Shown here piece after piece: positions 9,811 through 60,600 of a stretch of DNA of 64,000 nt. A model generated the notes under the pieces. That model saw nothing but the letters and a program-made list of their open reading frames with translations, was not told the DNA's origin and did not search any database. Position 1 is the first letter of the stretch, and each line of letters opens with the position of its first letter. The position numbers and the translations under genes were made by a program. This stretch comes from Prorocentrum cordatum (lineage: Eukaryota): positions 1 through 64,000 of the forward strand of contig CAUYUJ010000142.1 in NCBI GenBank assembly GCA_963575745.1, read 5' to 3'.

Positions 9811-10259
9811 TGCATGTGGTGCTGGCTGCCTGATTGGCAGCTGGTGTGAAAGCCGACGTCTGCGAACCCGAGGCGCGCGTCGGGGCTCCAGGCGCCCTCG
9901 GTCGGGCTCGCGACTCTCCTGCGAACAGGAGACAAAAGCCGAACCACTGACTACAACCGAAACGTTGCCCTCGTGTCGTCGATGCCCCCTTCAGGCTTGA
10001 GATAACTCGCACACGGGAAGTTTGGAGGCCGCCTGTAAGCCCTGAGCAGCATCGGCACGGTGCAAGGGCATCAACAAGCACTGCGCGAACTTTATCCCGC
10101 GATACAGAGCACACGAACACCTTGCAAAACTCGTAGAAGATGTTAGCCAGCGTGGACCCCGATGACGTAAGCTATTCCCCAAAACGGTGCTTGCACTCAG
10201 GCTTTTTAATCCGTTCTCAACGAATGGGCTAGATCTGGCGAGAGGTTCGCAACGTTCCT

Positions 10260-11430: not shown

Positions 11431-11849
11431 TGGACGCAACCAACCCCTCAGGAAGGCAAGTTCAGGGCAGTTGTTTAATACATTGGATTTTAAAACATCT
11501 AGGATTATCAAAGCATGATTGGCTTGTGAATCAATCTATGCACGAACTCATCGTTGCCTTTAATACTAAATCCCTGCAATTTTTATACATGATCCGCACG
11601 CGGAGCATGTACCAAAAACGGCACTGTCAGAACCCCAAAGTGCAAGCAATGGTCGGGGAAAATCCCAGCAGCCCTCCAGGCGTAAGCGGTCGATCGAGCT
11701 CGTCCGTGGCCACGCTTGCTGTTCCGACCTCTTGGAATCTGCGGGGGCCTCTTGGAGCCACCTGGGGGGATCCAGGGACCCCGTTGGAAGCATCCTGGGG
11801 CGTCTTGGGAGTATCCCGCGGCCTCTTGGGCCCAGAGATCCAGCGGTCA

Positions 11850-18500: not shown

Positions 18501-18530
18501 TGGAAGTCGGCGGCAAACCGTCCACCTTTG

Positions 18531-19852
18531 TTATTTTCTTTGCGCAGAGCCACGGGCCTGAGTCCAGGCCCGCTCGGGCCACAGCCACGCGCGGAGGGGG
18601 GCAGCGAAGCCTGGGGCTTGAAGCACCGCCAAAACACCCTGGGCCAGGTGCTTTGCAGCTCATAGCCCGGCTTGAGTTATCGGCGGCATCACATCACCAG
18701 TAGGAGGGGGCTTACTGATGAGCATTAGAGGCGAGGAGGTAGAGCAGGTTGCACAAACAAATCAAGTACCAAGCCACCGCCACAACCATCGGAACTGAAG
18801 TCATCGTCAAAGTAAACGCGGATTCCTCTGATGGTCCCGCATGCCGTGGCATAGTGACTCTGGCCCCTGCGGGCCAGCCATGTCGAATCATCAGCTCGTA
18901 CTTCCTTCGCGGTAGAACCATGCAACAAGATCACAACCATGGTATGGGGCCCTCAACTGTACATACTGGATTGCGGCAATCATCGTCGCATGCACATCGG
19001 TCGTACCCTGGAATATACCGTTGGCCCAGTTGCACACAAGAAGTGAGTCCCCGAGAATCTCCAGAAGCATCCCAAGGGCAACATGGTTCCAAGTCGTCTA
19101 GTGGTCGTCGTTATACTGCAATCGCTTTGATACCCTCTCTTTCTTCGCCTCCTTGTTCCGTCTGCTGACCTCCTCAGTCACGTCCTCCTTCTCCTCGCTC
19201 CAAGACCCTTTGGGATCCTTCAAGACAAAGTACTCCAGGAAATGTGTGAACTCCCAGACGCCTGAGACCACCCACGCAAACTGCTCCCAGGCATCCTCAT
19301 CCCACAGCAAGTTACAATACCAGTACGCCACTCCCACCAATTCAAACAGAAGGGTCCACGGTCTGAACCCCACAGAAGATGATTTTGCGGGGTATCATCG
19401 AGGAGCCTATTGGGGCTCTCTCGAGTCGTCGTAGTCTGGACGCGTTGTCCTTTTTTCTGAGCCCGCTCGCGCATCTGCCGGATCAGCTGCGGTTTGATTA
19501 AGCCCGAAGCAGGTGTCGACTGAGACCCACACCCAGGCACATCTGGGTCCGCGCACAAAGAAACATCAGCCTGCACCCATTGGGACTTCAGCCGAAGTAG
19601 AGGCCAATACGTTCTGAGAGCATCGTTGCGTTGCAGTACAGATATCCTTGGCTCAGGACCACTGACAAAACAAGACGAGCCAGGGCAAGGACGGCACGCC
19701 CAACATCTTCAGTGCAGCACGCGCCTGGCGACACACCCGATGCACGAAGGTAGTCCGATCCTCCTCTGGGCCCTTTCGCCCCCGCAGCATCTTCGCTAGA
19801 AGCCCCCCATCGCATCTGCGCAAAGCCCCAAAGCTTCTCTCATCCGCAGTCA
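18531..19852 (-). mobile_element. LINE-D: decayed 3' fragment of the same non-LTR retrotransposon group
   Basis: Broken frames give LRRCDGGLLAKMLRGRK (compare FEGMCLLRMSGRRK), ILGDSLLVCNWANG, FYREG..RADD and FDDDFSSDGCGGG. The 3' end abuts a half hairpin at 18500-18530. The 5' side is cut by a HINE end at 19853. Confidence 0.8.
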
Positions 19853-20921: not shown

Positions 20922-23900
20922 TTAGGTAGGTCGCAGCAGAGCGCACGCCACCTTAGCAGCAGCTCTCGTCAGGGCAGCGCAGGCAGCTAGTTCACAGCAG
21001 GTTACCGTGCTACCTGGAGGCAAGCTCATCGCCTCCTCGGCCACATCGTGCCAGTGGAAGCTCTGCGAGCTGATGCAGGAGGAAGAGGAGGAGGAGGAGG
21101 AGGAGGAGGAGGAGATGGGAAAATCAACCTGCACGCTGGAACCACTACCTAATACGCCAATCTGAAGCCACCACCCGCCTCCACATCCTTCATTACTGAC
21201 ACCCCCATCGAATGCACCACGGAGAGCAGTCTTACGAGTACTGAGGAACTGATCATATGCAAACCAGCGAGTAATAGTTTGGCCACCTCGGGCCTCCCAC
21301 GACAATCTATCCGCACGCTCACTACCCTCACGAAAGAAATGTTTATACAAATTCTGTCCCGATGCAGGTGAGGTCAGTCCCCATCCAGACAACATCGATA
21401 GAGTATTTTGCAGTACTCCCAGCAGTCGTACATACTGCTTGTTACGAATCTGCCACTCAGCACACATCCAGTTAACGACCGTCTTACTAACTCCCAAGAT
21501 TTTCATCCCAGAACGTTCAATACTCTCCCACCTCCACTCCGTTTCATGCTCATAATTAGCGGCAAGACGTTCGCTAATCCTCTCATTCATCTCTCTCTCC
21601 ACCTCCTCCTCCTCCGCCTTCACATACCTCACACCAGGTGGCCTGGGTAAAACAAATAACTCTAACAAGTGTTGCGTGCCAATCACAGTCAGCAGATGTT
21701 TGCAATATTTCTCGCGGGAGCCAGCGGAGCTGTCGAACGATAGGCACCACTCACAACCAAAGAGATCGCACAAACACCAATCCCATACAGTATGTCCACG
21801 GGCGGGGGCACCCATGTTCATGCGTGTGAGATGCTTCCTATCTTTTGAAGGCAACGCAAGAATACATGTGTCCCGATGTTCCGTCCACCTCCCCCTTCCA
21901 TGTAGCATGGTCAGCCTAGATATCATCCATTCACGTGAGATGTCCGACTCCCCGGGTATGGCAGGCTGATCACCCGTTGTCCGCCGTCGACCCCCACTCG
22001 ACATCTGGGAGATTTGGGATGCTAGAGAAGCCGCCGCCGCCGCCATCGCCCGAGTATTTATCTGACGCCGATTTGGCACCGTCTCCACATCCTCCTCAAC
22101 TGTGTGCGTTGTGTACCGCCTCATACGAATACTTGCAGCGACTGAGACATCCTTGGCCCAATCCCAACAACGAGATATCCATATCTGCACCGCACTTCGA
22201 AATCCAAGCTCAACAAACCTCTGCCGTCCAACTTTGGATCGCCTACGTTGAAACTCAGACCATCCTTCAGTTCTCCGCTTGCGTAGACCTGACATCAACG
22301 CCAGGCATCCCCCCTCAAAGAAGTGAACAGCAGCAATGGTGGAATAGTCGGGCGTTCGGCCCTCACAGTTGAATAATAATGCAGCAATCACTTTAGATTG
22401 ATAACGAGTAAATCTCTCAGCCAAATCAATACCAGAGCAGCGATAATAGGCGATTTCCCCAAAGAATACCTTCTGGGCGTTCTGGAGCATGGCCTCTGAA
22501 TCCGAGTGGTCCTTCCTGGTCTCCTCCAGAGTGGCCCCCAGGATCTCAAACGACTGAACACGCGGCAGGACCACCTCGCGGGCCCCGAGAGCAGGATCGC
22601 AAGACGGTGCAGCACACGAATATCCTGTTCGGGGGACGGCGGGATGCCAGGCGGCGCAACAAAGTAAATATACATCAAGGATTCCGGCTTCCAGGTCATT
22701 CCTGCATTCATCAGCGGGATACTCATGTCACGCACCATCAATTCGAGCTCGGAGCGAGTCTTCGCATACAATAAGAGATTATCTGCCCAGAAACTATGGG
22801 TCATACGCTCACCGTTGAACATGCGCTCATCGTTTTCCAACTTGATACCGTACTGCGTATCCTGCCTCCACCTGTCAACCACATCTCTCCAGAGTACGAT
22901 AGATACTGCTAGGAAAACCATCGGCCCCTCCACTCCTCCCGTTCGAATAGACTTGTCCCAATAGACAGCTGAAGATGCCTCGATGCCCTCGAAGCTGGCC
23001 ACACACTGATTATCAATCATGGGTTCAATCAACGCCACAATGAGATCAACTGGTATGTCAAGAGCACGAAGACAGCGCATGGCGAGGCACGGGGTAACAT
23101 TATCGAATGCTTGTAAAATATCAAGATTGGCAAGCCACAAACTGTCTCCTTTGCCCCAGACAGCGGAGTGCTGGCTGAGCCTTTTGGCAACGCTGGTGAT
23201 TTCCGATGTTTTTCGTCCCGATCTGAATCCGAACAGGCATACATAGTGTCGGTGCTTCTCAATCCTCTTCTCAATCATCATCACAATAAATGTCATGTAC
23301 CATATCATAAGACACGACTGTAGACATAGTACACGTGTATCTGTCAAGTGTTGTATGTCCATTTCCTTAGGCATGAGCGTGGCAGCTAGTTGACGCCAAC
23401 TGTCTGGGCAACATAACCTGCGGGAATACACACCATGGAAGCTCACCAGAACACGTCGGAGAGATGCCCACGAGAGCTGTTTCAACATCATGACAGTGAC
23501 GTTGTCGGGGCCTGGGGCCTTTCCCGTGGACAGCTTCGCCCTCGCCCGCAGCAGGAGCGACATCGAGAACACCTCCGAGGACCCACTTCGCAAACATAGA
23601 CCACGCAGCGACTGTAGCTCACGAAGGGTCACCTCCCTGGCCTCGGGGTCCTCAACCTTAGCCTTCATGTGCCCCAATATCTCGCCCCCCCACTCCTCGC
23701 GGTTCTGAGACTCCATCCCGTTGGCAAGGATCAGCGTATCCGTCTTGGCCCTCCTCCTCCTCCTCGTGTTCATCTCCGTCCTCCAGCCTCCCCCTTTCTC
23801 TCCTAACTATATTTGAGTACCGTTTGGCCTCCTCTCTATCCCCACGACGAAGTGCTTCGCGTTTACTTTCCTGGGCGGCCCAGTGGATCTCGGATTTCTT

Positions 23901-29600: not shown

Positions 29601-31428
29601 TCCCCCAAGTGTTTTCATAGTAATACTGCACCTATGGGCCTGAAAATTTTACTGGCAGACGCGGCATAACCCACTACAGGTGGGAAAAATCTGCTTTCTC
29701 AAAATAAATTGTCAAATATCTTTCAAATCTTCGGAACACCGACCCAAAGTCACCACGTTGTCCGTTCTGGTCGGGTCGGCCAACTAGCCCCAGCCCGCGC
29801 CGGAATTCCTCTAGCTCATCGATAACGAAGAGCTCTACGAGGGATTTCACATCTTAGCAAAACCACCAAAAAATTGCCACATTGTCCTTTCTGGCCGGGT
29901 TGATGGCAGCGTCCACTTGGCAGCGTCCAAAACTGGGCGCCGGCGGTAAACCGTCAACCTTTCTTACCGCCGGGGGACTCGTAGAGCTTCCTGACAATAT
30001 ATAATGCCGAAAAAATTGCAGAGAACGAATAGTTTTTTCAGTCCCAACGATTTCAGACCTCTCCATGCAACAGCCGAACGCCCCCGATGCTTCTGGATTG
30101 TCTTCTGTGCGATTTCTCTGCTCTCCTACAGCCCGAGTTACGTGCGTAAGTCGACAGCGCCTCTCAAGATAACTCGAACAATACGAATAGTTTGGCAAAC
30201 CTAGCTCGAGTATCAGACCGAGTTCAGACCTCTGAATGCGACAGGCGGACTCGTCTGATGTCTCTGGATCGATTCCTGTGATTACCAGCCCTGCAGCCCC
30301 CCAACAGCCCGAGTTAAGTGCAGAAAACCGACAGCACCTCTCAGGATGACTCGAACAATACGAATAGTTTCGCGGACCTAGTTCAGGCAACAGACCGAGT
30401 TCCGAGCTCTGGATTCGACAGACGACGCGCCTGATGTCTCCAAATCGATTCCTGTGACTACCAGCACTGTAGCCGCCCTACAGCCCGGGTTAAGTACAGA
30501 AAACCGACAGCACCTCTCAAGATGACTCGAACAATACGAACAGTTCTGTGATTCTAGATCGGGCAGCAAACCGAGTTCAGAGCTCTGGATTAAACAGACG
30601 AACGCGACTGATCATTTTGAAACAGTTTCTCTAAGCATCAGCTCTGTAGCTGTCATATAGCTCGAGGTAAGCACAGAAAACCGAGAGCGCCTGTCAAGAT
30701 GACTCGAATAATACGAATAGATTTGCGGACCTAGCTCGGCTAGCAGACCGAGTTCAGACCGCTGGGTGCAACAGACGAACGCGCCTGATCATTCTGAATC
30801 GATGAGGTGTGCTTACCAGCTCTGTAGCTGTTCTCTATCTCGAGTTAAGTCCAATATACCGAGAGCGCGTATCAAGATGACTCGAAACGGCCGATCCCGC
30901 CAGTGTGCTTTTTGGCAGTAAAAGGTACCCGATCGAGCTGAGATCAAGATGGCGAGCGGAAATAAGATCGAATATCACGGGACAAAAATACTAGAGCTCA
31001 AACGAATTGAGGAATTTCGATAACAAAACTGGCGCCGGCGGTAAACCGTCAACCTGGTCACCACCGGGAACCTCGTAGAGCTCTTTCCACGCGTGAGAGA
31101 GCTCAGAGTCGGAAGAGAGAGATTCTTGAGCATTTCTCGAAAAAAAACAATATTGTTTTTTTTTTCATGTCGACATGAAGTTGGTTCCCCCAAGTGTTTT
31201 GATAGTAAATGTGCGCCTACAGAGCTCATATTAAGACGCAGAGGCCCTCATAGTCGTTTACAGGTGGGAAAAATCTGGTTTCTCAAAATGAATTGTCAAA
31301 TATCTTTCAAATCTTAGCAAAACCGACCCGAAGTCACCACTTTGTCTCTTAAGGCCGGGTCGGCCAACTAGCTCCACCCCGCGCCGGAATTCCTCTAGCT
31401 CATCGATGCCGAAGAGCTCTACGAGGCA

Positions 31429-32584
31429 CTGGGCACCGGCGGTAAACCGTCAACCTTTCCTACCGCCGGGGGACTCGTAGAGCTTCCTGACAATATATAA
31501 TGTCGAAAAAAATTGCAGAGAACGAATAGTTTTTAGCGCAAGCGATTTCACACCTCTCGATGCAACAGCCGAACGCCCACGATACTTCTGGATTGTCTTC
31601 TGTACGCGAACAAAACAAATAGTTTGGAAAACCCAGCTTGAGTACCAGACCGAGTTCAGACCTCTGAATCCGACAGGCGGACGCGTCTGATGTCTTCGAG
31701 TCGATTCCTGTGATTACCAGCCCTGCAGCTTCCCTGCAGCCCGAGTTAAGTGCAGAAAACCGAGAGCACCTCTCAGGATGACTCGAACAATACGAATAGT
31801 TTCGCGGACCCAGTTCGGCCAGCAGACCGAGTTCCGAGCTCTCGATTCGACAGACGGACGCGCCTGATATCTCCAAATCGATTCCTGTGATCACCTGCAC
31901 TGTAGCCGCCCTACAGCCCGGGTTAAGTACAGAAAACCGACAGCACCTCTCAAGATGACTCGAACAATACGAATAGTTTCGCGATTCTAGATCGGGCAGC
32001 AGACCGAGTTCAGAGCTCTAGAGTCACCAGACAACCGCGACTGATGATTCTGAATCAGTTTCTGTTAGTATCAGCTCTGTAACTGTACTATAGCTCGAGT
32101 TTAGTACAGAAAATCGAGAGCGCCTGTCAAGATGACTCGAATAATACGAATAGGTTTGCGGACCTAGCTCGGCTACCAGACCGAGTTCAGACTTCTAGAT
32201 GCAACAGACGGACGCGCCTGATCATTCTGAATCGATACAGCGTGCTTGCCAGCTGTGTTGCTGTCCCGTATCTCGAGTTAAGTCCAATAAACTGCTAGCG
32301 CGTGTCAAGATGACTCGAAACGGCCGATCCCGCCGCAGTGCTTTTTGGCAGTGAAAGGTACCCGATCGAGCTGAGATCAAGAAGGCGAGCGGGAATGAGA
32401 TCGAATATCACGGGAAAAAATACTAGAGCTCCAACGAATGGTTGAATTTTGAGAACAAAATTGTCAACCGACCAAAAGTCAGCAAAAGGTCTGTAGAGAT
32501 TTTTCTTGCCAACTAGCTCTCCAGCGCCCCAGAACTACTCTTAAGCTTCCAGCAACAACTTGCTAAAAGAAGCTCTACGAGTTA
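31429..32584 (-). mobile_element. Complete family-A HINE-like element
   Basis: Hairpin and actcgtagagcttc at the left, ~176-bp repeats inside, inverted gaagctctacgagt at the right. Confidence 0.85.
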
Positions 32585-34320
32585 TTTTCAGCCGACCAAA
32601 AGTCACCAAAAGGTCCGTCGGGACTTATCTTGCCAACTAGCTCTCCAGCGCCCCGGAGCTGGCGCCGGCGGTGAACCGTCAACCTGGTCACCGCCGGGAA
32701 CCTCGTAGAGCTCCTTTCACGCGCGAGAGAGCTCAGGGTCGGAAGAGAGAGCTTCTGGTGGCCGGGCCGGCCAACTACCTCCACCCCGCGCCGGAATTCC
32801 TCCAGCTCATCGATGCCGAAGAGCTCTACCAGGTACTGGGATCCGGCGGTAAACCGTCAACCAGGTAACCGCCGGGAGCCTCGTAGATCTCTGTTCTCGC
32901 GAGGCGCTGCTCGGAGCACACGGAAAAAGCTTTCTCAAGCGTGAAAAAAAGCTCGCAAAAAAAATATTTGTTTTATTTTCCATCCTTGCTTCGTGGACCT
33001 AGCTCGAGTGCGAGACCGAGTCTAGACCTCTCGATACGAGAAAAGAACGCGCCGGGTGATACTGGTTCCGATGATATGCGTACCAGTCTGTAGCTCTTCT
33101 AAATCTTTAGTTAAGGGAAACCGACAGCACTCGTCAAAATGTCTCGCATAATACGAATAGTTTCGCAGATCCAGCTCGAGTAGCAGACCGAGTTCAGATC
33201 TCTCGACGGAACAGACAAACGCGCCTGATGATTCTGAATCGGTTTCTGTAAGTATCAGCTCTGTAGCTGCCCTAAATCTCGAGTTAAGTACACAAAACCG
33301 TCAATGCGTGTCAAGATTCGAAACGGCCGACGGTTCCCTCAAGTCTTTTTATAATAATATTGCAGCTACGAACCTGAAATTTCACTGGCAGACGCGGCAT
33401 AACCCACTACAGGTGGGAAAAATACATGTTCTTAAAACGAACATTCGAATTTTACACAAAGATAGAAAAACCAACCCCAAGTCGTCACATTGTCTCTTAA
33501 GGTCGGGTCGGCCAACTAGCTCCACCCTGCGCCCGAATTTCTCTTAGCTCATCTTGCCGAAGAGCTCTACGAGGTACTAGCTCCACCCTGCGCCCGAATT
33601 CCTCTTAGCTTATCTTGCCGAAGAGCTCTACGAGGCATTACTCTCAAGCTTCCAGCAATAACTTGCTAAGGGAAGCTCTACGAATTACAAGCCCCACCCC
33701 GCGCAGGAATTCCTATAGCTCATCGATGCCGAAGAGCTCTACGAGGGACTCTTAAGCTTCCAGCATTAACTTGCTGAGGGAAGCTCCACGAGTCACTAGC
33801 TGCACCCCGCGTCCTCTAGCTTATCGTTGCCGCAGAACGCTGGCCGGTGTGGTGCCCGCCAGCAGTTCATCTCCACCACTCCACGATCCTCGCAGCACCT
33901 CGCCCGAGCCAGCAGCGGGTCCGCAACAATGCAGGATCGCTTCAGAAGGGTTTCACAAAGCTCAACAGGCGCCCCAGGAGGGATTGACAGAGCATTGCAG
34001 GAAGGCTCGCGTCCACGCGTGCCTGCACTCGTGCAGGCACGCATGGGGGCGTGCCTGGCAGTGCTTTCGAAGCGCTTCAGAGGGACCCAGGGAGCTCTCT
34101 GGGAAAGATTTCCCGTCCCGAAGGGTATCCTCGCTCTCCGGATTTTGAACGCTACCAAGTGAACATACCTGGTAGAGCTCTTCGGCATCGATCAGCTAGA
34201 GGGATTCTGGCGCGGGGGCTGCTAGTACCTCGTAGAGCTCTTCGGCATCGATGAGCCAAAGGAATTCCGGCGCGGAGTAGAGCTAGTTGGCCCACCCGGC
34301 GCGGACGAACAATATGTAAA

Positions 34321-35896
34321 CTGGCGCCGGCGGTAAACAGTCAACCTGGTCACCGCCGGAAACCTCGTAGAGCTCTCCAGACTGGTAAGAGTGCTGAGAA
34401 TCGAAGTAGAGTCATAAAACAGAGATTTTTCGAAAATCTTCATTTTCGATTTTTTCGATGTTCATAGTCGCTAGAAAATACATCGGGAGAGCTGAGCTGC
34501 CGTCAGAGAGGAGTTTACATGCCAATGCGACGCGCAAAAATCTGCTTTCTCAAAATAAATGGTTAGATATCTTTCAAATTTTCGCAAAACCGACCAAAAG
34601 TCATAAATTTGTCCGCCCGGGCTGGGTCGACCAACTGGGCGCCGGCGGTAAGCCGTCAACCTTTCTTACCGCCGGGGGACTCGTAGAGCTTCCTGACAAT
34701 ATATAATGTCGAAAAAAAGAATTTTTCAGCCCGAGCGATTTCAGACTCTCAATGCAACAGCCAAACGCCCCCGATGCTTCTGTATTGTCTTCTCTGCGAG
34801 CTCTCTGCTCTCCTACAGCCCGAGTTACGTGCGTAAATCGACAGCACCTCTCAAGATAAGTCGAACAATACGAATAGTTTGGCAAACCTAGCTCGGGTAT
34901 CAAACCGAGTTCAGACCTCTGAATGCGACAGGCGGACTCGTCTGATCTCTCTGGATCGATTCCTGTCATTACCAGCCCTGCAGCTTCCCTACAGCCCGAG
35001 TGAAGAGCAGAAAACCGACAGCATCTCTCAGAATGACTCGAACAATACGAATAGTTTCGCGAACCTAATTCAGGCACCAGACCGATTTCCGAGCTCTCGA
35101 TTCGACAGACGACGCGCCTGATGTCTCCAAATCGATTCCTGTGACTACCAGCACTGTCCCCCTACAGCCCGAGTTAAGTACAGTAAACCGACAGCACTTC
35201 TCAAGATGACTCGAACAATAGGAACAGGTTCACGATTCTAGATCGGCCAGCAGACCGAGTTCACAGCTCTGCTTTCAACAAACGACCGCGACTGATCATT
35301 CTGAATCAGTTTCTCTAAGTATCAGCCCTGTAGCTGTCATATAGCTCGAGTTAAGTACAGAAAACCGAGAGCGTCTGTCAAGATGACTCGAATAATACAA
35401 ATAGGTTTACGGACCTAGCTCGGGCAGCAGACCAAGTTCAGACCTCTGGGTGCAACAGACGAACGCGCCTGATCATTCTGGATCGATGAGGTGCGCATAC
35501 CAGCTCTGTAGCTGTCCTATATCTCGAGTTGAATCCAATATACCGAGAGCGCGTATCAAGATGACTCGAAACGGCCGATCCCGCCAGTGTGCTTTTTGGC
35601 AGTAAAAGCTATCCGATCGAGCTGAGATCGAGATGGCGAGCGGAAATTAGATCTAATATCACGGGAAAAAATACTAGAGCTCAAACGAATTGAGCAATTT
35701 CGATAACAAAATTTTCAATCGACCAAAAGTCACCAAAAGGTCCGTCGAGATTTTACTTGCCAACTAGCTGTCCAGCGCCCCGGAATGACCCTTTAGCTTC
35801 CAGCAATAACTTGCTAAGGGAAGCTCTACGAGTTACTAGCTCCACCCAGAGCCGGAATTCCTCTAGCGCATCTCTGCCGAAGAGCTCTACGAGGTA
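34321..35896 (-). mobile_element. Family-B HINE-like element carrying a nested family-A copy
   Basis: Inverted ends acctcgtagagctct / agagctctacgaggt. Removing 34635-35835 restores the usual family-B sequence gtcgaccaa|ctagctccaccc. Confidence 0.85.
34635..35835 (-). mobile_element. Complete family-A HINE-like element nested in family B
   Basis: ctgggcgccggcgg...ggaagctctacgagtta, with a 15-bp inverted repeat actcgtagagcttcc/ggaagctctacgagt. Confidence 0.88.
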
Positions 35897-37341
35897 ACTG
35901 GGAACCGGCGGTAAACCGTCAACGAGGCTACCGCCGAGACCCTCGTAGAGCTCTTTTCTGACGGCGCTCCTCTGTAAGCATGAAAAAAGCGTCAAGAGCA
36001 AGACCTGAGGAACTCGAAAAATCACGTTTTTCTGTTTTTATCCAACGTCGGTTCCGCCAAGTGTTTTGATAGTAATACTGCAGCTACGGACCTGAAAATT
36101 TCACTGGCAGACGCGCCTGAACCAACTACAGGTGCAAAAAATCTGATTTCTCGAAATGAATTCTCAAATATCTTTGAAATACTTGCAAAACCACCCAAAA
36201 GTTAACACTTTGTCCTGTCTGGCCGGGTCGACCAACTAGCTCCACCCCGCGCCAGAATTCCTCTAGCTCATCGATGCCGAAGAGCTCTACGAGGTACTTG
36301 GTAGCGTCCAAAACCCGGAAAGCGAAGAGACCCCTCGAACCGAGAAACTGGGCGCCGGCGGTAAACCGTCAACCTTCGTTACCGCCGGGAGACTCGTAGA
36401 GCTTCCTGAGAATAACTAATGTGGAAAGGAGACTTCTTGATCAGACCGAGTTGAGACCTCTGGATGCAACAGGCGGACCCGCCTGATGTCTTCAAATCGA
36501 TTCCTGCGATTACTAGCTCTGCAGACCCCTTACAGCCAGATTTAAGCGCAGAAAACCGAGAGCATCTCTGAAGACAACTCGAACAATACGAATAGTTCCG
36601 CGTATCTAGCTTGGGCAGCAGATCGAGTTCAATGCGACAGGCCGACGCGACTGATGTCTCCGAATCGACTCCAGTGATTACCAGCCCCGCAGCCCCCTCA
36701 CAGCTCGAGTTAAGTGCAGAAAAGGGACCGCACCTCTCAAGATGACTCGAAGAACACGAATAGTTTGCAGACCTAGCTCGGGCAGCACACCGAGTTCTGA
36801 GCTCTAGATTTGACAGGCAGGCGTGCATGATGTCTCCGAATCGATTCCTGTGAATACGAGCCCTGTAGCCCCCCTAGAGCCCGAGCTAAGTGCAGAAAAC
36901 TGACAGCACCTCTCAAGATGACTCGAACAATACCAATAGTTTCGCGAACCTAGCTCGGGCAGCAGACCAATGTCAGACCTCTAGATGGAACAGACGAACG
37001 CGCCTGATGATTCGAAATCGATTCCTGTGATAATGAGCTCTGTAGCTGCCCTATAGCTCGAGTTAAGTACAGAATACCGACAACGCGTATCAAGATGACT
37101 CGAAACAGCCGATCCCGCCGCTACGTTTTTTTGGCAGTAAAAGATACCCGATCGAGCTGAGATGAAGAAGGCGAGCGGGAATAAGATCAAATATGGTCAG
37201 AAAAAATACTAGAGCTCAAACGAATTGTTGAATTTTGAGAACAAAATTTTCAACCGACCCAAAATCAGCAAAAGGTCCGTCGAGATTTTTCTTGCCAGCT
37301 AGCTCTCCAGCGCGCCGGAACTGGGCGCCGGCGGTAAACCG

Positions 37342-40300
37342 TCAACCTGGTTTGTTTGTTTGGACTCGCGTTCCCAGCCGAGTGCAGCCGGGCGAGGACC
37401 GGTCCCGCAGAAGCACACGGGCAGCGCTGAGCAGCGCTTCGGCTGCCGACAATTCACATTCTGTGACTGTAGCTCCTTCGAGGAGCCACGCGGCCTCGGC
37501 CACATCCCTCCAAACGAGGGGCACGGCACTAGAAACAGCAAACTCATGCCCAGCAGGGAAGGGGCCCACGGTTCTCGCGGAAGCGATGCCTATCTCACTG
37601 GGATTGCACTGAGTATTGATTAAGCCGATCTGAAGCCAGAAACCACATCCTGATCCTTGCTGGTCAACCCCGCCATCAAAGCCTCCCCTGATAGCGAACG
37701 GTAAGAGATAAGTTTCGAATGGATATAGATAACAATGAGTTCTGTAGAATGTGCGGCCACATCTGGCCTCATGCGTCAATTCATCCGCTCGTGTATTGTC
37801 CTCCCTGAATTCATGTCTCCATATCTCACGTCCCAAGGCAGCAGGCCTCAGATTGAAACACGCAGCGAGCTCAAAGGTACAATCAATCATGGCAGCTGTC
37901 CTCTTGCAGTAGCCACGATTCTCACATCTCCATTTCCCCTGTAGCCAGGAGCAGATAAGTAATGAGTCACCCTTGAACTCAGCAGCAAAACCCTCTGAGG
38001 ATATATCCCACACAGTCGCACGTTCCTGGATCATAGCATAACGTATTGCAAGCTTGGCGGACTCTTTGGGGTCGTACTTGGGGCGCAGAGGGTTGGTCGC
38101 GATGTCGACCGCATCAGTATCGGCCTTCTCTTGAGCCTCAGGGGAGCCTCGAGGTCCATTAGGAGAGCCCTTCCAAGACACCACAAAGTAATCATAGACC
38201 TTAGTTTTGTTGTATTGTGTAAGGAGTTGCTTCCACACCTCCAAGAACTGAACCCAATCGCCCCGTACAGACTCCCACAACTTTTCCCCAAAGAACTGAA
38301 TGTAGGGGAACTGCCAAGACCGACCGCCCACAGACACAGGGCCTCCACGAAGCCGCTTGCCCGAACTAGATAAGGCCCTGTTGCCGTGTTGTCGTAGAAC
38401 CTCTGTTATTGCGTCGCGAGCCGTGACCCAGCCAACATTGTACATCATAAGCGCACGTCGGGAGTCTCGAAAGGCCCTCCTCCCCTTTGAGACGGTAAGT
38501 GGCTCGTCTCTGAGAGTGTGGGCAGCTCCCTCTCCAGAGGGCATCGGCTGTGAGCGGGCAATGGAACAGGCGACCTGCGAGCAAAGATCCTCCAGCCGCC
38601 TCTCCATATCCGTAATCCCCCCCTCCACCTCCATCACAGTCGCTGCAGGTACATCCTCCCCCCGTCCATCCGTAAAGCGAACACGTTTAGCACGTTGAGT
38701 CGTTGATCCCTCCACCTCAACCTCCGTCCTTGCCGTCCTGTCCTCCTCCAAAGATTGTAAATATTGCCTCGTGGAGCGCATCATGCCCCAGCTCTTCCAA
38801 CACAGCATCTGCACAGACGACGTGAAACCCCCATCGCAGAAGATTGTCCTGACTCGTGTCAGCGCAGCTGGCCGCCATACCTCCCACCCCACATCTCCTG
38901 GCTTCCTCCTCCCTGACATTCTCAGAAGACACATACCCTCGAACGCATGGATAACCCTCACACACTCACTGTCAATCGTGATGGCCTCTGCTGCATATAA
39001 AAGACGGCTCTGCACAGTCGATTGATATCGACGAAACTTCTTCACCAGAGGCAGCGCCCTGCACGTAAAATACTGCACCTGCGCAAAGAATGCCCTTCGG
39101 GCCTGCTGGACGCGCTCCTGCACATCCGTGTGGATAGAAGTGAAACTTCTGGGAATCTGATACCCCAGCACATTCAAACTCTCAACATGCTTGAAAGGAA
39201 CAATCCGCGAGCCAATCTGAACCGTGACCGTATCAGTGTACTGAGTACCACACACCATCATCTCTAGACTCTCCTCCTTCCACTCCATCCCCCAATCCCT
39301 GAGAGCAGTAGTGAAGGCAGCGGCCGCTACCTGCGCCTCCGATGCTGACTTGGCGGCCAGAAAAATATTGTCAGCCCAGAGAGCATGATTCCAACGTGCA
39401 TACCGACAATGATCATCATGGCATGGCATCTCGACTCCGACACCGCGCTGATCCAGGCGAGCAATCACATCACGCCACATAGCAATAGTGACAATAGTAA
39501 ACGCGATAGGTGATTCGGTACCCCCAGTACGGAGCGACCTATCCCACTGCACATTGGGGATTGTCACTCCTTCAAACAGCACCGTGCATGAAGTAGATGA
39601 GAGAGGCTCCAATAACGCATACTGTAACCGTGCACTGATCCCAAGGGCCGTCATCGCTCTCGAGACTGTCGGCAACGTCACAGCATCGAACGCCCGCTCG
39701 ATGTCACAGCTGAGGAGCCACGCCGTTTGATCTCGCCCCCATGTGGAAGCATGTTGTGCAATACATTTCATGGCCGATGAAATCTCCCAGCAACGTCGTC
39801 CGCTGGTAAAACCGAAAAACCGCCATTTCACTCATGAAGGGTTCCACACATCGTTCCAGTAAAATCGTCACACACGTGAGATACCACTTGGCCAAGGTAT
39901 TTCCGACAAGCAGGTTCCTTGTTTGTCGCAATGTTTCCAGTTTGCTCGTTTTCGGCATAAGTGTTAGGTATACTGCCTGCCATTCCCTTGGCGTCGGGCG
40001 AAGCCCGTTGGATATATCAGATAAAACCTTACCAATAGAACGCACTGACCTCCACGAAAGAGACTTGAGAAGTTCAACCGAGATGCCGTCGGGCCCACAG
40101 GCCCGTCCTGTTCGGAGCCTGCTCCGCGCCTGCAGAATAGTAGAGTATGTAATCGTAAGTGTGTTGTCCGAAGAGGCTGCTGATTGAGATGCATGGCGAC
40201 GCAGTGTGGACACAAGCTCCCGATTGCGGGCTCTGGAGTCATCACAAGTCATACTCTGCACAGCATATCGCTCCACCTCCTCCGCCCACAGTTCCCTGTC

Positions 40301-41620
40301 CTCCGTCATCAAAGTCGTAGGCCCCATATCCCCTCCCCCAGTGTCCGTCACCCTCAACTCCGTCACACGTGTCCTCCTCCCCTTCCTAGGTGGTAGCGCC
40401 TCCCACTCCACCTTCCGTCGGCGATATTCCCGCGCAAGCGGTCTGATGCGACGTCGAAGGTCCCGAGCCAACGCTCTGTCCTTCCTAGCACGTGCCTCTC
40501 TGAGTTGTACCTCCAGCTCGGCATGCTGAGGAGTCCTACTCGGCGGGAGCCCTCGAGAGTACCTGGGGGCCCTCACCGTGAGGAGCGGTAACGCATGTCC
40601 AGCAATCGTTTCAGCAAGACGTTGTGGGGGCACCGTCGGGATCTGGACGTCCGCCAGGACCTGAAATTGGGCCTCCTCCCGATACGATTGGAACTCTTTG
40701 TGGCTTGTGTGGTGGCTAGGGGGGCCTTGATATTTCGTGACCTGAGGGTTCTGCATATGGAACTCGGCGTAGACACAGGCATGATCCGAGAAGTTGGTAG
40801 TCGGGGTCTCTGGGATCCAATCCGTTCGGCATTCAACCAAGTCACCCTCCCAGGATTGTGGGACCATGAGATAGTCAAGCACTTTTGGCGCAATAGTCTT
40901 CGCCCCAGACTTGCGTCGAGCATTATTCGCACGATGCGCGAAAGTCGGCTGCCGAGAGCACGGCGAGCCAAGAGAATTGACTGCCAGCAAGCGCATCCGA
41001 CACAGCCACTCCTGCAGCTGAGATCGCCACATGTCCTCCTCCCACCGTCTATCCTCCGTATCATTCCCATATCCCCTCCCGTCGAGAATCTGCACAGCAC
41101 CTCCAGTCACCGTGCCTCCTGAACAGGTGATGTCGGGCGCAAGCTCAACATTAAAATCCCCTGCAATCACAAGCTCACATGTGTATCTGCATTCCTCCTT
41201 CCACCTCCGATAAGTTGTTTCGATTGTTTTCAGCATCTCAAAAGCCACCTCCAATGAACGATTCTCCGATCTGTTCGGAAAGTACGCAGAGACAAGAAAG
41301 ATACACGGATGACGCAAGCACACAATAGCAAGACGAGCATGATTACTCCAAGAGCGAACTATGTTGTGACAAGACTTCCCCCTCAAAGCTATGGAAGCCT
41401 TCCTGTCACTTGAATAAACTAGGTGCCAGCCAAGCAGCTGAATTGAATTGGACGGTAAGTGTTCACACTCCTGTAAACAGAACACTTCACAGCCGTGAGA
41501 AAGAAGTGCCCTCATGCAAGCAAATCCCCGATCTGCTGTAGCCCCTTGTTTCATAAGATTCTGGGTGCCTAGCCTATGCTGGGCTGTGGGGCCACCAGCC
41601 CGACTGGCACCTCTGCACCG
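37342..41620 (-). pseudogene. LINE-B ORF2 (APE-RT-RNase H), one frameshift near 39830
   Basis: APE motifs: LGTQNL, CLQE, SAYFP, GDFN, LDY, SDH. RT motifs: ACGPDG, CDIERAFDAV, SLRTGG, WADN. RNase H motifs: GDS, REDNTRAD, FDGG, TECE. Confidence 0.92.
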
Positions 41621-43409
41621 TCACACCCTGCCGGCAAGACTCGTAACAAATGTGTCGTATGTAGTCGTCACACCGCTTCGCATAAGTACCCCCTCCCAGA
41701 TCTCGCGGTCCACTGTCCACCCCGTATTGATACGAAAGGATGCCAGTTCCACGGGTCGATGCTGAGGGTCCTGCGGCTTGGTCCACATTGTGCTCCGTCC
41801 GTTGGGTCCCGATCCTGGCTCCCCCCTGATCTCCATGGCCTCACTGTTGGTACACTCGCGGTATGTCCCATAGAAGCGCCCCACAGCCCCGATATGATCA
41901 CGTTTCCAAGGTGGGGCCTCTATGCGTACGCGGACCCGACTGGGTCGTTGTAACATGCCCTGGAACATGCTGTCATAATCTGGAGGTGACCTCGAAACCT
42001 GAGCCGCATTCCTTTGGGGATTCGGAGTTAAAGCATCATCAAAAGCACGCTTCACGTTGTATAATGTCGAAGAGTCGGTTCCTACAATGAATTTGATTTT
42101 GATCGTACTCAACATCATTCTACTTCCATTCATACGTAATGTGCCCTCGTAGTCGATCCTAGCTTCATCCTCTGCTGCGATGGCCGTCTTCAAATTAGTG
42201 ATGAATTGTGCAGCGTCCGTGTCTCTCATCATACTGGCCGAACGTGCAACCGCTGTCCCATTCCAGTCTGTCCAGCCTGTGAGCTCCACATAGCTGGGAC
42301 TGAAACTGGAGGGTCCTGAGAGTCCTGGTGGGCCCCCTCCGTAGGAAGGTGCCGTAGTCGAGGCTGCACCTGATATCACACTGGGGTTCTTCTTGAGATC
42401 CTGCATCTGTCGTTCCAAGTTGTTCATCCTGATGTCGGAGGCCTCCTGACGATTCGAGATGCTCTGAATATCGGCCCTGATTTCGACGTTTTCTTGTTGC
42501 CTAACTTTGCTCTCAAGCACGTTGAGCTCCGCGAAGGCCTTGAACCAGGATGGGGCCTCGTCCGAGACCACACTGAGTTTCTTTCGCTTCTCCTCGAGTT
42601 CTCCCAAGAGTGCCTCGTGAGGACCGTTGACACGATGTTTGACATTTCGTTGGGCATCGTCGCTAACACCCTGCATACCCTGACGCTCCCCAGCACCTTC
42701 AGGGACAACAGCCGCTTGGGCCGCCGCCTGTTGTGCCTCCGTGGGCATACCTGGGGGTCCCCCTAGAGCACCTTGTGGAGCTGGGCCTCTAGGAACAACA
42801 GGAGCGCCTCCAGATCCTTGACCTCCAGAACTGACCTGACCTACTGGAACCCCTCCCGCACGCCCTCCGTTGGTTGTAGCTCCCGCCACAGCTGCGTTGG
42901 AAGGAGTCTGCATCATATTCATGAGTCCTGTATTCATATTCACAAATGAAGGTGGGACAACACAATGGCTATCACTATCTGGTGTGGAGTCGGCAGTATT
43001 CAATCTCCCGTCCAATGGAAGGTCACGTACAATCTGCTCGGTATCCTGAATTTGCCTCTTCCGAGATGCCCTCTCAACAGCAGAATCTGGTCTCTGTCCG
43101 TAATCCTGTGAGTACTGCAAATATGGTACAGTCAGGGAAATATCCTCCAGCTGGAAACGTCTCGCAAGCACTGAAAAGTCGTACCCGTCCGTCTTTGCAC
43201 ACACGACAAACAAAACAACAATTACAGCACACAAAGCAGGCGGCCTGGCTTGCCTGGAAGATGCCGTACTCGTCGATGGCAGCGATGGCCGCCGCGCCGC
43301 TTCCCCGCGGCGCCGACACCCCCTGAGCTCCTGTGGGATCCAGGAGCCCTAGAGCCGAGATGTCTTGAGCTCTTTTCTTGCCCAGCTCCTAGACCTCGTA
43401 GAGCTCTTT
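37351..43409 (-). mobile_element. LINE-B: full-length non-LTR retrotransposon
   Basis: Splits the hairpin ccggcggtaaaccgtcaaCCTGG | CTTGGctaccgccgg (37346-37350 and 43410-43414). It has a (CAAA)n tail and ORF1 plus APE-RT-RNase H. Confidence 0.93.
41621..43234 (-). CDS. LINE-B ORF1 (start uncertain)
   Basis: Open 537 codons with a coiled-coil-like stretch, then PSYVELTGW and IEAPPWKRDH. Confidence 0.85.
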   Translation of the reverse strand: MCAVIVVLFVVCAKTDGYDFSVLARRFQLEDISLTVPYLQYSQDYGQRPDSAVERASRKRQIQDTEQIVRDLPLDGRLNTADSTPDSDSHCVVPPSFVNMNTGLMNMMQTPSNAAVAGATTNGGRAGGVPVGQVSSGGQGSGGAPVVPRGPAPQGALGGPPGMPTEAQQAAAQAAVVPEGAGERQGMQGVSDDAQRNVKHRVNGPHEALLGELEEKRKKLSVVSDEAPSWFKAFAELNVLESKVRQQENVEIRADIQSISNRQEASDIRMNNLERQMQDLKKNPSVISGAASTTAPSYGGGPPGLSGPSSFSPSYVELTGWTDWNGTAVARSASMMRDTDAAQFITNLKTAIAAEDEARIDYEGTLRMNGSRMMLSTIKIKFIVGTDSSTLYNVKRAFDDALTPNPQRNAAQVSRSPPDYDSMFQGMLQRPSRVRVRIEAPPWKRDHIGAVGRFYGTYRECTNSEAMEIRGEPGSGPNGRSTMWTKPQDPQHRPVELASFRINTGWTVDREIWEGVLMRSGVTTTYDTFVTSLAGRV

Positions 43410-44280
43410 CTTGGCTACCGCCGGGGACCTCGTAGAGCTCTTTTCTTGCCCAGCTCCTCGGAACACGTGAAGCAAGCTTAAGCGAGAGCCAAAAAACTTT
43501 AAAAAAATCGATCGCATACACATAGTTTTGCGGACTTAGCTCGAGAAGCGGACTTTGTTCAGAGCTCTAGATGCTTCAGCCAAACGCCCTTGATGATTCT
43601 GTATCGGTTTCTGTGCGTACCACCTCTGTAGCTGTGCTACAGCTAGAGTTAAGTGCAGAATACCGACAGCGCGTCTAAAGAGAACTTGAGAAATACAACT
43701 AGTGTTGTGGACCTAGCTCGACTAGCAGAACGAGTTCAGGCCTCTCGATGCAACAGACGCAAGCGCCTGGTGATACTGAATCAGTTTATGTGCGCACCAG
43801 CTCTGTAGCTCCTCTGAATCTTGAGTTGAGTACAGAAAACCGGCATCACTGGTGAAGATGACTTTTACGGACCTAGCTCGAGTAGCAGACCGAGTGCAGG
43901 CCTCTGGATGCAACAGTCGAACGCGCCTGATCATTCTGAATCGGTTTCTGTAAGTATCAGCTCTGTAGCTCTCGAAATCTCGAGTTAAGTACAGAAAACC
44001 GTGAACGCGTGTCAAGATGACTCGGAACGCAGTTGGTTCCAGCAAGTCTTTTGATAGTAATATTGCAGCTACGGACCTGAGAATTCAACTGGCAGACGCG
44101 GCATAACCCACTACACGTGAAAAAAATACCGGTTCTCAAAATGAATTGTCAAATATCTTTCAAATCAAAGCAAAACCGACCCAAGGTTATCACATTGTCT
44201 CTTTTGGTCGGGTCGGCCAACTAGCTCCACCCCGCGCCGGAATTCCTCTAGCTCATCGCTGCCGAAGAGCTCTACGAGGT

Positions 44281-45538
44281 TTTTTTGGACTGCCAACGTG
44301 AAGTCGGTCCCTGGCTTCGCTCGGGAGAATTTTTCGACGGAATGAACTAAGAATTTGTGAGGTAACTTCTGTAATGCCAAGCTTCGCTCTGCGCAAATAG
44401 CAGCCCAAACGAATTGTTAGAACTGCAAAATCGGCTGAGCCAGGCCGCGGAAGGTATGATCGCGTCCCTTTTCGACATTTCGCCAACTAGCTCCACCCTG
44501 TCGCCGAATTCCTCTAGCTCTTCTACCATCAGAGCTCTACGAGGCACTAGAAGTGCAAGCAGACGCCTGAGAGAACTAGAAGTGCAAGCAGATAGCTTCT
44601 GATGGCATTTTCTGCAAAACTGGAAATTGCATTTTTGGACTGCCAACGTGAAGTCGGTCCCTGGTTTCGCTCGGGAGAATTTTTCAACGGAATGAACTAA
44701 GAATTTGTGAAGTAATCTCTGTAATGCCAAGCTTCGCTCTGCACAAATAGCAGCCCAAACGAATTGTTAGAACTGCAATATCGGCGGAGCCAGGCCGCGG
44801 AAGGTATGATCGCGTCCCTTTCCGACATTTCGCCAACTAGCTCCACCCTGTCGCCGAATTCCTCTAGCTCTTCTACCATCAGAGCTCTACAAGGCACTAG
44901 AAGTGCAAGCAGACGCCTGAGAGAACTAGAAGTGCAAGGAAATAGCTTCTGATGGCATTTTCTGCAAAACTGGAAAATTGCATTTTTGGACTGCCAACGC
45001 AAAGTCGGTCCCTGGCTTCGCTCGGGAGAATTTGTCGACGGAATGAACTAAGCATTTGTGAGGTAACTTCTGTAATGCCAAGCTTCGCTCTGCGCAAATA
45101 GCAGCCCAAACGAATTGTTAGAACTGCAAAATCGGCTGAGCCAGGCCGCGGAAGGTATGATCGCGTCCCTTTTCGACATTTCGCCAACTAGCTCCACCCT
45201 GTCGCCGAATTCCTCTAGCTCCTTTACCATCAGAGCTCTACGAGGCACTAGAAGTTCAAGCAGACGCCTGAGAGAACTAGAAGTGCAAGCAGATAGCTTC
45301 TGATGGCATTTTCTGCAAAACTGGAAAATTGCATTTTGGGATTGCCAACGTGAAGTCGGTCCCTGGCTTCGCTCGGGAGAATTTTTCGACGGAATGAACT
45401 AAGAATTTGTGAGGTAACTTCTGTAATGCCAAGCTTCGCTCTGCGCGAATAGCAGCCCAAACAACTTGTTAGAACTGATAAATCGGCTGAGCCAGGCCGC
45501 GGAAGGTATGATCGCGTCCCTTTTCGACATTTCGCCAA
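44281..45538. repeat. ~351-bp tandem repeat, ~3.6 copies, each containing a family-B terminus
   Basis: ttttggactgccaacg-like starts at ~44283, 44633, 44984 and 45335. Confidence 0.93.
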
Positions 45539-57671: not shown

Positions 57672-60600
57672 CTAGGGTCCCTCACGCCCTCTCAACCTCT
57701 TTGGGGTTGGAGGCCCGATGATCTCAGAGATAATCTGCCGAACACCTTGGAGCAGGCGTTCACAAGCTGTGAGCTCGCTATCTGTAACAGTGGCCCCCAG
57801 AGGGAGTAAAGAAGCCTCCTGGAAAACTCGTCGCCAGTGGTTGTCCCCAAATGAGACCTCCACATAGCAACCTAGAGCAGAGCCTTCAACACTCACGCCA
57901 CCGTCCCATCCTCCACGGATACGTTTGATACAATGTCTCTGTTGTCGCAAATATCTGAAGTCAATCCATCTTCCCGTCCTTCCCCTCCTCGCCTCCCAAG
58001 TCAACTCATCCGCAACACAATTGAACTCTCTGTAGATATGCTTCCACGGATCCGTCCCTACAGTGGCACACCTGATGTCGTAATCCTCAGCAAGTTGATT
58101 CATATCGTTTTGTAGACCATGCACTCTCCTGCGGTACGAACGATCACGGCATTCCCAGATCCCTCGGGCCCAGTTCACCACACACATACTATCACCAGTC
58201 ATTTCAACCAACAATGAGCCCTCCGAGCCCTCCTGCCAGACAGTTTCGTTGTTATATCCGTGGGCAATACTACGAGCGAGCCTGTCGGAGTCCTCAGGGG
58301 AGCCCCACGTATCCACAGGACAAGGAGCACAGGGCGGTTTCCTGAAGATGGGCTCCCATCGAGGCTGTATTTTTGTCACGCACGCAACTACATTCCACCA
58401 GTCCGTCGCATTCCACTTGATGCTGAACCAGCGTAAATTACCACTCGCCGCCAGCATAAGACAATGCCAGCTGTCAGTGCTTGCATGCGCTCTCCCTCCC
58501 ACTCTCCTCGTACCTTCCCTCCTCCTGGCTCCCGTGAACATGGATACAAGTGTGTCCCTCCGTAGTGACCATTCCCCCGCACAGTGTAACATGGCCTGAG
58601 GCGTCTGGCGCCAGGCTCGTGCTCCACGCATGTCCGTGGAGGCGAAGGCCCGATCATGAAACTGGGCCAGCTCCAACGCAAACTCGAAATTGGCTCGGAC
58701 CACCTTCTCTAGGAGACTGCAGTGGCCAGCCTGCAAGAATAGCTCGTAGGACTTCGGTGTGGTCCTGTCCCTGAACTCCTCCCACGTCTCCTCCTCCCTC
58801 TTGTGTAATCCTCGCATACCGTTGAGACACCTCCCCTCCCAGACCTTAATCCTCTCCAGCAGTCGTAGATTGCACGGCCAGCCTATACATCCGTGGCACA
58901 CCACAGACTGCACACGAGCGGCATACCTGCGAAACTTCTCTTTGAGTGAGACCGATCCGGAGCGATAAAACTGGATGTCAGCAAAATAGGCCTTCCTCCC
59001 TTTCTCCAGTCGATGATACAAGCCGTGATAACCTTTGATTTCCGAACTGAGCTTCACTCCTAGTACCTCCACCTCCTCCTTCCTCGGCATTACGACAGTC
59101 GAGCGCAAGTGCTCTGGGAGATCCTCATCTCCAGAAATCGCACAGATGGCTGGCGAGAGCGGGCAGAGCAGCGGCGGATCGCCACATGTGTACGTCTGGC
59201 CAAAAAGTACATACGCCAAAGAATCCTCCTTCCAGTCCATCCCTGCCCGTCTGAGTGTTACCGTCATCATACCGATCATCTGTTGTAGCTGGAGTTGCGA
59301 TGCAGCACAGAGCGTAACATTGTCCGCCCACAAGAAGTGGTGTACAAGAGCACCGTCCGTCCCCTCCCCTTCCAGTCGGACACCGTATCCTAAGGTATCC
59401 CAAGTCTGAATCACAGATCCCCAGATGGCCTCCAAGACAATATTGAAAAGTATAGGTCCCTCCTTACCTCCCGTTCGGACCGATTTATTGTATCTCACCT
59501 CATCGCCGCACACGTTCTGAAACTCAAAGGTAGCAATGTTATCCAGCATGGGCTCCACAATGGCTCTAATGAGGCACACAGGGTACTTAAGGTACAGCAT
59601 GGCCTTGATGATAGTGCGCAGTGTGACATTATCGAATGCTTTGTGTATGTCCAAGACTCCCACGTGCATAGACTCCGCCTTCCCCCACACATTTGCATGT
59701 CTAGTAAGATGTGATAGTGGTGCCGTGACGTTAGTAACCTTCTGATCCTTCTCAAATCCGTATGTGCACAACCGTCGGTTCACAGGAAATGCATCAATAA
59801 ACTGCAACACACATGCCATGTACCATTTACTCATCACACTGATCAGGCAAATCCCTCTGGTGTTGGAGAGTCGTGTAGCATCCCGCATCTTCGGCACAAG
59901 TTGGATACTGAGCTGCCTCCACGTCTCAGGGCTGGAGGCTCCCTGCTCGAAAATCCTCTGGAAAGCACGCCGCACAAACAAGAGGCTCCTCCACGGCAAC
60001 TCACGAATGACCTCAGCAACGACTCCATCGCTACCGGGTGCCGTGCCAGGCTTCAAAGACGCACGAGCCTGCATGAGCATGCCCATCGTGATGACTCTTC
60101 CCTCCACCCCACGGTCGTTGTGTCTGAGTTCCTGAAAGGCCTCCAAAGTCCGTTTTTCCTCCTCCGAGTTCGTGTAAGACGCCGTCGCATACCTAGTGAT
60201 CTCCGTACTCCACCTAGTCCTGTCCATTGTCAGCACACCCTCACACTCCAGCTCCTTGAGGATACACCGTGAGGTCTTACTGGATCCCTTGTGGTCCTGC
60301 AGGAGTTGGTTCCTCCTATGCTGTCTCCTAAGGGTCTTCCTCCTACGCAGCAGTTGTTTACGGGCATTCCCAAGGGCCCCACGCCTGATGGCAGACTCCA
60401 CCTCTATGAGCTCCCTGGGCCTCTGAATAGGTTTGCAGTTGGGGCGCCCCTTGGCGTGGTCCACAAGCTTTGCCGTCTCCAAGAGTACCCGTCCGACCTG
60501 CTGCAGGTCCGCCCCTACCGTGTCCGATGCAAGCCCCTCAATCGACACATCCGCAAGCACACGAAACATGTTCCTCGCCGCGTCATCCGTCGGCTGCCAG

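Follow-up and report, generated by a model that had tools for sequence, protein, structure and literature searches.

A putative circularly permuted, archaeal-type RNase HI at the C-terminus of ORF2 in LINE elements of Prorocentrum cordatum

The DNA of Prorocentrum cordatum considered here (assembly GCA_963575745.1, contig CAUYUJ010000142.1, positions 1 to 64,000; the window hereafter, meaning the whole stretch of 64,000 nucleotides) contains four elements resembling long interspersed nuclear elements (LINEs), called LINE-A, LINE-B, LINE-C and LINE-D, all of which lie on the minus strand. In the C-terminal stretch of about 200 residues encoded at the end of their second open reading frame (ORF2), two halves homologous to RNase H very likely stand in permuted order. 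Judged from sequence and structure models, this region is probably an archaeal-type (RVT_3-like) RNase HI of permuted connectivity, which forms one fold with an intact active site and is active in intact members of the family. We incline, if only slightly, to the wider proposal that a large lineage of marine-protist LINEs has kept, as its standard C-terminal domain, a catalytically active, naturally permuted RNase H derived from an archaeal-type enzyme by duplication and truncation.

Motif order and homology of the two halves

The canonical RNase H order, β1-β2-β3-αA-β4-αB..β5-αE, is not that of the LINE domains. On the minus strand, the C-terminus of LINE-B ORF2 reads GDS, then HEFREDNTRADEL, then FDGG and finally TVTECE, from nucleotide 37971 down to 37453. 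In the translated frame, GDS starts at residue 621 (first codon base at nucleotide 37971), HEFRE at residue 673 and ADEL at residue 682 (HEFREDNTRADEL spans residues 673-685), followed by FDGG at residue 718 and TVTECE at residue 788 (nucleotides 37470-37453). A preliminary description of this DNA had placed the order from GDS to TVTECE at 37440-37990, and the LINE-B motifs all lie inside these coordinates. The same order is found in LINE-C (GDSMC, HIYREFNCVADEL, GWDGG, TVTDSE) and in LINE-A, where GVS replaces GDS (GVS, HFFREGSERADRL, AFDGG, TVTCCE). All four acidic residues are present in LINE-B and LINE-C, as the preliminary description had maintained and as the translated frames bear out. 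Its statement that the domain is conserved in all four elements holds for A, B and C but not for LINE-D. The latter is a degraded remnant (18752..19322, approximate limits), split over at least two frames, which reads GDSLL and YREG and then, in another frame, RADD and FDDD; TVTxxE was not seen in it. Pairwise identity of the readable copies A, B and C is just 30-36%, and their common motif order is therefore not the result of recent copying.

The first encoded half of the LINE-B domain (37762..37989) corresponds to the half that is C-terminal in canonical RNase H. It comprises β4, αB, αD, β5 and αE and carries Asp622 of GDS in β4 (codon 37966-37968) and Asp683 of HEFREDNTRADEL in αE (codon 37783-37785). 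A linker (37708..37761) leads from the old C-terminus at the end of αE to the old N-terminus at the start of β1 and includes a short strand, which in the AlphaFold2 model of LINE-B is E118-121 between H103-113 and E132-146. The second encoded half (37396..37707) corresponds to the N-terminal half of RNase H and is composed of β1, β2, β3 and αA, with Asp719 of FDGG in β1 (codon 37675-37677) and Glu793 of TVTECE in αA (codon 37453-37455). Between β2 and β3 it contains an insertion of 33 residues (37516-37614), a loop modelled with low confidence. Just 5′ of β4 lies a conserved helix (PKESAKLAIRYAM..., 38023..38070, helix 11-26 of the LINE-B model) with a conserved KLAKR-like pattern and a block predicted local distance difference test score (pLDDT) of 91-94 in that model. 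The permuted domain of LINE-C occupies 57717..58298 (residues 789-982 of a frame of 996 residues), with the catalytic codons of Asp824 at 58191-58193, Asp885 at 58008-58010, Asp920 at 57903-57905 and Glu963 at 57774-57776, and that of LINE-A occupies 20925..21590 (start approximate).

When a profile of copies A, B and C was run against 1.84 billion cluster representatives, 394 proteins passed the threshold of E<=1e-3, of which 137 also passed E<=1e-10 and 33 passed E<=1e-30. A 62-sequence alignment of this family was then used as a profile against all 177,635 PDB sequences. It gave six significant matches, all to proteins of the RNase HI type (4e19, 3aly, 2ehg, 3u3g, 4h8k and 3hst). The best match was Halobacterium RNase H1 (4e19_A) with a whole-sequence E of 3.2e-7, and the remaining five ranged from 2.8e-5 to 2.5e-3. 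On 4e19_A the two stretches are swapped, with profile positions 149-216 falling on chain residues 69-128 (FDG..AE) and positions 54-129 on residues 133-197 (GDS..NerAD). The weaker stretch has an i-Evalue of 9.5 over 177,635 sequences, equivalent to about 5e-5 per sequence, and lies on the part of 4e19_A that the other stretch leaves uncovered. Comparison by hhalign with a canonical set of 25 bacterial RVT_3/RNase_H proteins, alternative alignments being allowed, likewise paired family positions 72-148 with canonical positions 142-208 (probability 97%, E=1e-10) and positions 164-189 with 69-96 (probability 85%, E=6.5e-6), again in swapped order. Two half-hits in swapped order, the outcome looked for in a hidden Markov model (HMM) check set beforehand, were obtained both with 4e19_A and with hhalign, and these alignments support the natural permutation of RNase H halves first put forward from the sequence. 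The family carboxylates align to the canonical catalytic residues, the Glu solely in a forced, low-confidence extension of the hhalign alignment that puts the Glu of TVTxxE on the catalytic Glu of NNEAEY. Both halves are covered, in the order of the permuted profile, by 71 of the 154 domains that were aligned; the permuted order is far beyond chance.

RVT_3 was the sole Pfam family matched, by 18 of the 62 family members (best E=4.6e-7), and at E<=0.01 Pfam left 44 of the 62 without an RNase H annotation. The RVT_3 matches with coordinates cover just profile positions 61-123, i.e. the second half of the profile. Scanned alone, the first half of LINE-C matched RVT_3 positions 63-119 of 123 (E=0.02, 15.2 bits), whereas no score was obtained for the remaining halves of the window copies. 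Searches with less information returned little. A Pfam scan of the whole C-terminus of the window copies gave no RNase H family, phmmer with single window copies against the PDB gave no RNase H and only DNMT1 at E=1.2, and phmmer with the full-length relative P0010 gave nothing in the PDB at E<=0.01. A word-index protein search with a window copy yielded 0 matches, and tblastn against plasmids yielded two irrelevant Ensifer matches (E=6-8). A look-up with a protein language model, which serves as a lead only, brought up clusters of RVT_3 and RNase_H (scores 0.88-0.90).

Predicted fold, conservation and competing explanations

AlphaFold2 models of the LINE-B and LINE-C domains were built with family alignments. 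Each domain was predicted as one confident unit (LINE-B: pLDDT 87.3, predicted template modelling score (pTM) 0.84; LINE-C: pLDDT 86.6, pTM 0.81), with pLDDT of about 96-98 across both halves, and each has the permuted element order expected from the motifs. In both models, a leading helix is followed by a strand ending at GDS, two helices, a short strand pair and a helix from N..AD. After the linker come a three-strand meander, the first strand of which bears the DGG Asp, and a long helix with the Glu close to its start. The element order is β4-αB-αD-β5-αE-linker-β1-β2-β3-αA. As modelled, the domain holds the full RNase H element complement, read from β4 round to αA, and the acidic residues occupy canonical element positions at the end of β4, at the N-terminus of αE, within β1 and at the N-terminus of αA. 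Foldseek, which is a sequential aligner, found nothing in the PDB at E<=1e-3. VIA-align matched RNase HI chains over the first encoded half only, with an identity of 18-27% across the structurally aligned half. When the two halves were predicted, from single sequences, as a complex of separate chains, the median score was 0.24 versus a mark of 0.34. Mutual-information coupling over the 154 aligned domains (effective number of sequences, Neff, about 143) yielded top pairs mostly from a few variable linker and helix columns.

Conservation was counted in the family alignment, whose members represent clusters of 50% identity. The Asp of DGG is kept in 126/127, the αA Glu in 98/98, the Asp of GDS in 110/116 and the Asp of AD in 132/136, so that each carboxylate is conserved in 95-100% of aligned members. 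Within HxxRExN, the His is kept in 119/137, the Arg in 132/136, the Glu in 127/136 and the Asn in 132/136. Taken alone, RNase H activity in intact family members is a reasonably likely prediction from this sequence record.

In the proposed arrangement, the chain would begin at β4 with the GDS Asp and continue through αB, αD and β5 to αE with the Asp of HxxRExNxxAD. A linker of about 20 residues would join the old termini and lead into β1 with the Asp of FDGG, then β2, β3 and αA with the Glu of TVTxxE, some 28 residues before the end of the protein. The two halves would assemble as one ordinary five-stranded RNase H fold with an intact Asp-Glu-Asp-Asp (DEDD) site. In intact members, the domain may then degrade the RNA of the RNA:DNA hybrid formed during target-primed reverse transcription.

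Several observations weigh against this proposal. LINE-A, LINE-B and LINE-C lie in frameshifted ORF2s, and the window copies are decayed. LINE-A has Val for the Asp of GDS and is missing one carboxylate. The window copies remain under the Pfam RVT_3 cutoff (15.2 vs 21.6 bits); the colinear RVT_3 model is unable to score both halves of a permuted domain. The second encoded half, in particular, is poorly recognized on its own. Searched against the PDB up to E=10, a profile of second halves (15 sequences) returned YiiS as its best match (E=0.1) and not a single RNase H. In hhalign the same profile reached a probability of 9% against one canonical protein and of 28% (E=6.3e-4) against the canonical alignment. 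Six fragments consisting of the second half only had no Pfam RNase H match, in another 10 proteins scanned no match extended beyond the second half of RVT_3, and none of the second halves of the three window copies matches the N-terminal half of Pfam RNase H profiles.

It is conceivable, albeit unlikely, that the permuted RNase H-like fold no longer cleaves RNA:DNA hybrids. It might instead act as a nucleic-acid-binding or scaffolding module, akin to the retroviral connection domain, or as a nuclease of another specificity. The carboxylate lost in LINE-A and the scores of the window copies under the Pfam cutoff would agree with such a role, and moving the tether to the reverse transcriptase (RT) from β1 to β4 could change the geometry. 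However, the four carboxylates are kept at the level given above across representatives of 50% identity clusters, and the His, Arg-Glu and Asn of the motif are kept as well, which is not expected of a non-catalytic scaffold. Moreover, genuine RNase HI enzymes are the nearest relatives in sequence.

A pair of RNase H domains in tandem, each partly degenerate, in normal order and folding separately, is a much less probable source of the motif order. The N-half of the first domain would have become unrecognizable and the C-half of the second would have been lost or diverged. There is a reported precedent in the dual RNase H, with one degenerate copy, of retroviruses and some long terminal repeat (LTR) elements (PMC4408406, PMC10508981). 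The conserved helix before β4 could be a remnant of a lost half, as could a strand-like h-x-h-x-x-D-G segment found after αA in some divergent members. Nevertheless, the 142 residues before β4, compared in 19 long members, are similar neither to canonical RNase H (E=0.78) nor to the family's own β1-αA half (E=0.52), in agreement with the preliminary description, which had seen no DG/E motif before GDS. In the LINE-C model, the region upstream of β4 has a pLDDT of 44-55 and lacks a β meander. Downstream, the tail after the catalytic Glu has a median of about 28 residues among the 98 proteins covering the Glu and is at most 48 residues long in 90 of them. As the stretch from β4 to αE takes about 76 residues, no C-half can follow the Glu in such tails, and the GDS...RExNxxAD series is absent from three tails of at least 77 residues (P0016, P0139 and P0150). 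The preliminary judgement that tandem domains are unlikely is thereby upheld. In addition, the pTM values and the high pLDDT over both halves point to one rigid unit, and half an RNase H fold would not be expected to be stable alone. Chance motif likeness in an unrelated C-terminal domain, or an assembly artefact, can practically be dismissed: although no RNase H came up when the window copies were searched as single sequences, the profile matches to the PDB (E=3.2e-7) and to the canonical family (E=1e-10), the 71 of 154 domains from independent assemblies that are colinear with the permuted profile, and the order common to three window copies of such low mutual identity all speak against it.

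Circular permutations usually arise when a domain is duplicated and the outer halves are then lost. The permuted RNase H of the LINEs most likely arose in this way, from a duplicated RNase H that would have lost its outer halves. The conserved helix before β4 sits where αA would be in a canonical chain and may be a relic of an αA helix; its position fits the duplication route but is not significant alone. Right after αA, seven proteins (P0040, P0061, P0075, P0087, P0094, P0104 and P0114) have a strand-like segment with Asp-Gly. The tail of P0016 after αA carries GDS rather than Asp-Gly, at the place where canonical β4 would follow. These segments may be a relic of the duplicated ancestor and fit the duplication route, again without being significant alone.

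The LINE elements and their surroundings

An RT was found by Pfam (RVT_1) in every ORF2 of LINE-A, LINE-B and LINE-C. The distal piece of LINE-B ORF2 (37342..39831, stop codon 37342-37344) is an open frame of 829 residues encoding the RT (RVT_1 at residues 6-226, E=3.3e-12) and the C-terminal permuted RNase H. The proximal piece (39704..41620) encodes a putative apurinic-type endonuclease (APE) and the start of the RT. Its match to Exo_endo_phos is weak (E=0.014, 15.6 bits, under the curated cutoff of 24.5). The two pieces, 39704-41620 and 37342-39831, overlap in different phases, and a frameshift is therefore placed near 39.8 kb. An ORF1-like frame (41621..43348), matching no Pfam family, precedes them. 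At 41620/41621 on the minus strand, the ORF1-like and endonuclease frames are in the same phase with one stop codon between them, which suggests readthrough or termination-reinitiation rather than frameshifting. The ORF2 frame of LINE-C (57672-60662) has 996 residues with RVT_1 at E=3.3e-13, and that of LINE-A lies at 20922-22727 with RVT_1 at E=3.2e-10. Between RT and RNase H, LINE-B (about 38100-38330) and its relatives share a conserved module, G.R.W......FG..WW.......Y..F...Y.YF, for which profile comparison gave no similarity to RNase H.

A 23-nucleotide motif, CCAGGTTGACGGTTTACCGCCGG, occurs at 29 sites in the window (at most 3 mismatches) versus 0 expected, 28 of the 29 being on the minus strand. 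One site (37328-37350, minus strand) overlaps the stop codon of LINE-B ORF2, and 28 more lie between 19860 and 55024. The motif looks like a 3′-end element that these LINEs have in common with many short or 5′-truncated copies, and it may be a candidate recognition site of the RT. The LINEs lie among arrays of a repeat of about 177 nucleotides (spacings 175-177) at about 17000-20600, 26850-37200 and 43450-44300. These repeat families have up to 26 copies with 60-93% identity to the reference copy. Positions 1-14000 of the window are richer in G+C (0.53-0.65, versus about 0.50 in the rest), and both strands carry numerous long open frames that overlap one another; Pfam scans of five frames in this region gave nothing convincing.

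Relatives, known systems and implications

Full-length relatives of the LINE proteins are 1279-1491 residues long and contain an RT detected by Pfam. Three of the five full-length relatives scanned have an at least weak Pfam match to the APE; Exo_endo_phos was matched weakly in P0160 (E=0.001) and P0018 (E=0.05). In P0010, P0018 and P0061 the permuted domain is at the C-terminus. The 394 proteins matched by the profile of the window copies include full-length ORF2 products of about 1300-1455 residues that have an RT and end with this domain. Among relatives of named origin, the nearest are fragments from Pyramimonas sp. CCMP1952 (EukProt), a prasinophyte alga, which share 82-94% identity with LINE-C. 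Among the 20 family proteins listed, none had a precomputed Pfam domain.

The LINE domain shares with archaeal-type RNase HI and RVT_3 (PF13456) the motifs FDG(G), (A)E, GDS and RExNxxAD, the four carboxylates and the lack of a long basic protrusion. Solved examples of this type are the enzymes from Halobacterium (4e19) and Sulfolobus tokodaii (2ehg, 3aly), LC11-RNase H1 (3u3g, 4h8k) and Rv2228c of M. tuberculosis (3hst). The LINE domain differs from them by its swapped halves with the linker of about 20 residues between the old termini, by the extra conserved helix before β4 and by the variable insertion between β2 and β3. Proteins of Bacillales annotated as 'reverse transcriptase-like / ribonuclease H family' (P0203 and relatives; PF13456 and PF00075) share with it the motifs FDGG, NNEAEY, GDSxxVxNxxxGxW and RKxNxEADxLA. 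In hhalign they match the C-half of the LINE family at E=1e-10 and its β1-β2 part at 6.5e-6. In contrast to the LINE domain, they have the canonical order and are stand-alone proteins of 220 residues with an extra N-terminal domain, outside retroelements.

The archaea-like RNase H (aRNH) domains in L1 LINEs of plants and oomycetes are described in canonical order. The LINE domain reported here is permuted, unlike these, and its nearest named source is a prasinophyte alga. In other respects, no context described so far comes nearer than that of the C-terminal aRNH in these L1 elements. It reportedly (PMC5348765) has the same layout of APE, RT and an archaeal-type RNase H ending ORF2, and the same presumed role in removing the RNA template after first-strand synthesis. 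The dual RNase H reported for retroviruses and Tat/Ty3 LTR elements also represents a rearrangement of RNase H modules, duplicated or acquired, within the polyprotein of a retroelement. It consists of two whole tandem domains, one of them degenerate, whereas the LINE family has the elements of one domain in permuted order. The available text on CIRPIN (PNAS 2026, PMC13552848; 10.1101/2025.11.18.689110) gives one circular-permutation pair of 'ribonuclease H-like domains' among AlphaFold DB clusters. This is likewise a natural, computationally found permutation in an RNase H-like fold, although that text names neither the proteins nor retrotransposons, and the pair may or may not be the LINE family described here. 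In the main text of a census of the RNase H-like superfamily from 2014 (PMC3985635), neither 'permut' nor 'circular' occurs. No article in the literature searched dealt with a permuted retroelement RNase H. If the proposal is true, no RNase H of permuted order would have been described in a retroelement before the LINE domain.

The RNase H fold has been studied at length and belongs to the core modules of retroelements; here it appears with a new connectivity. Engineered RNase H permutants have been used in folding work, and the LINE family would be their natural counterpart. Permuted domains are easily missed in annotation: no more than half of such a domain is visible to a colinear HMM, and LINE clades scored as 'RNase H-less' in surveys may hold permuted domains. 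For the elements themselves, the new termini would re-tether the nuclease to the RT by β4 and not by β1, which would change the spacing of polymerase and nuclease on the hybrid. Attachment by a different strand would be a test of the limits that RT-RNase H geometry sets on target-primed reverse transcription.

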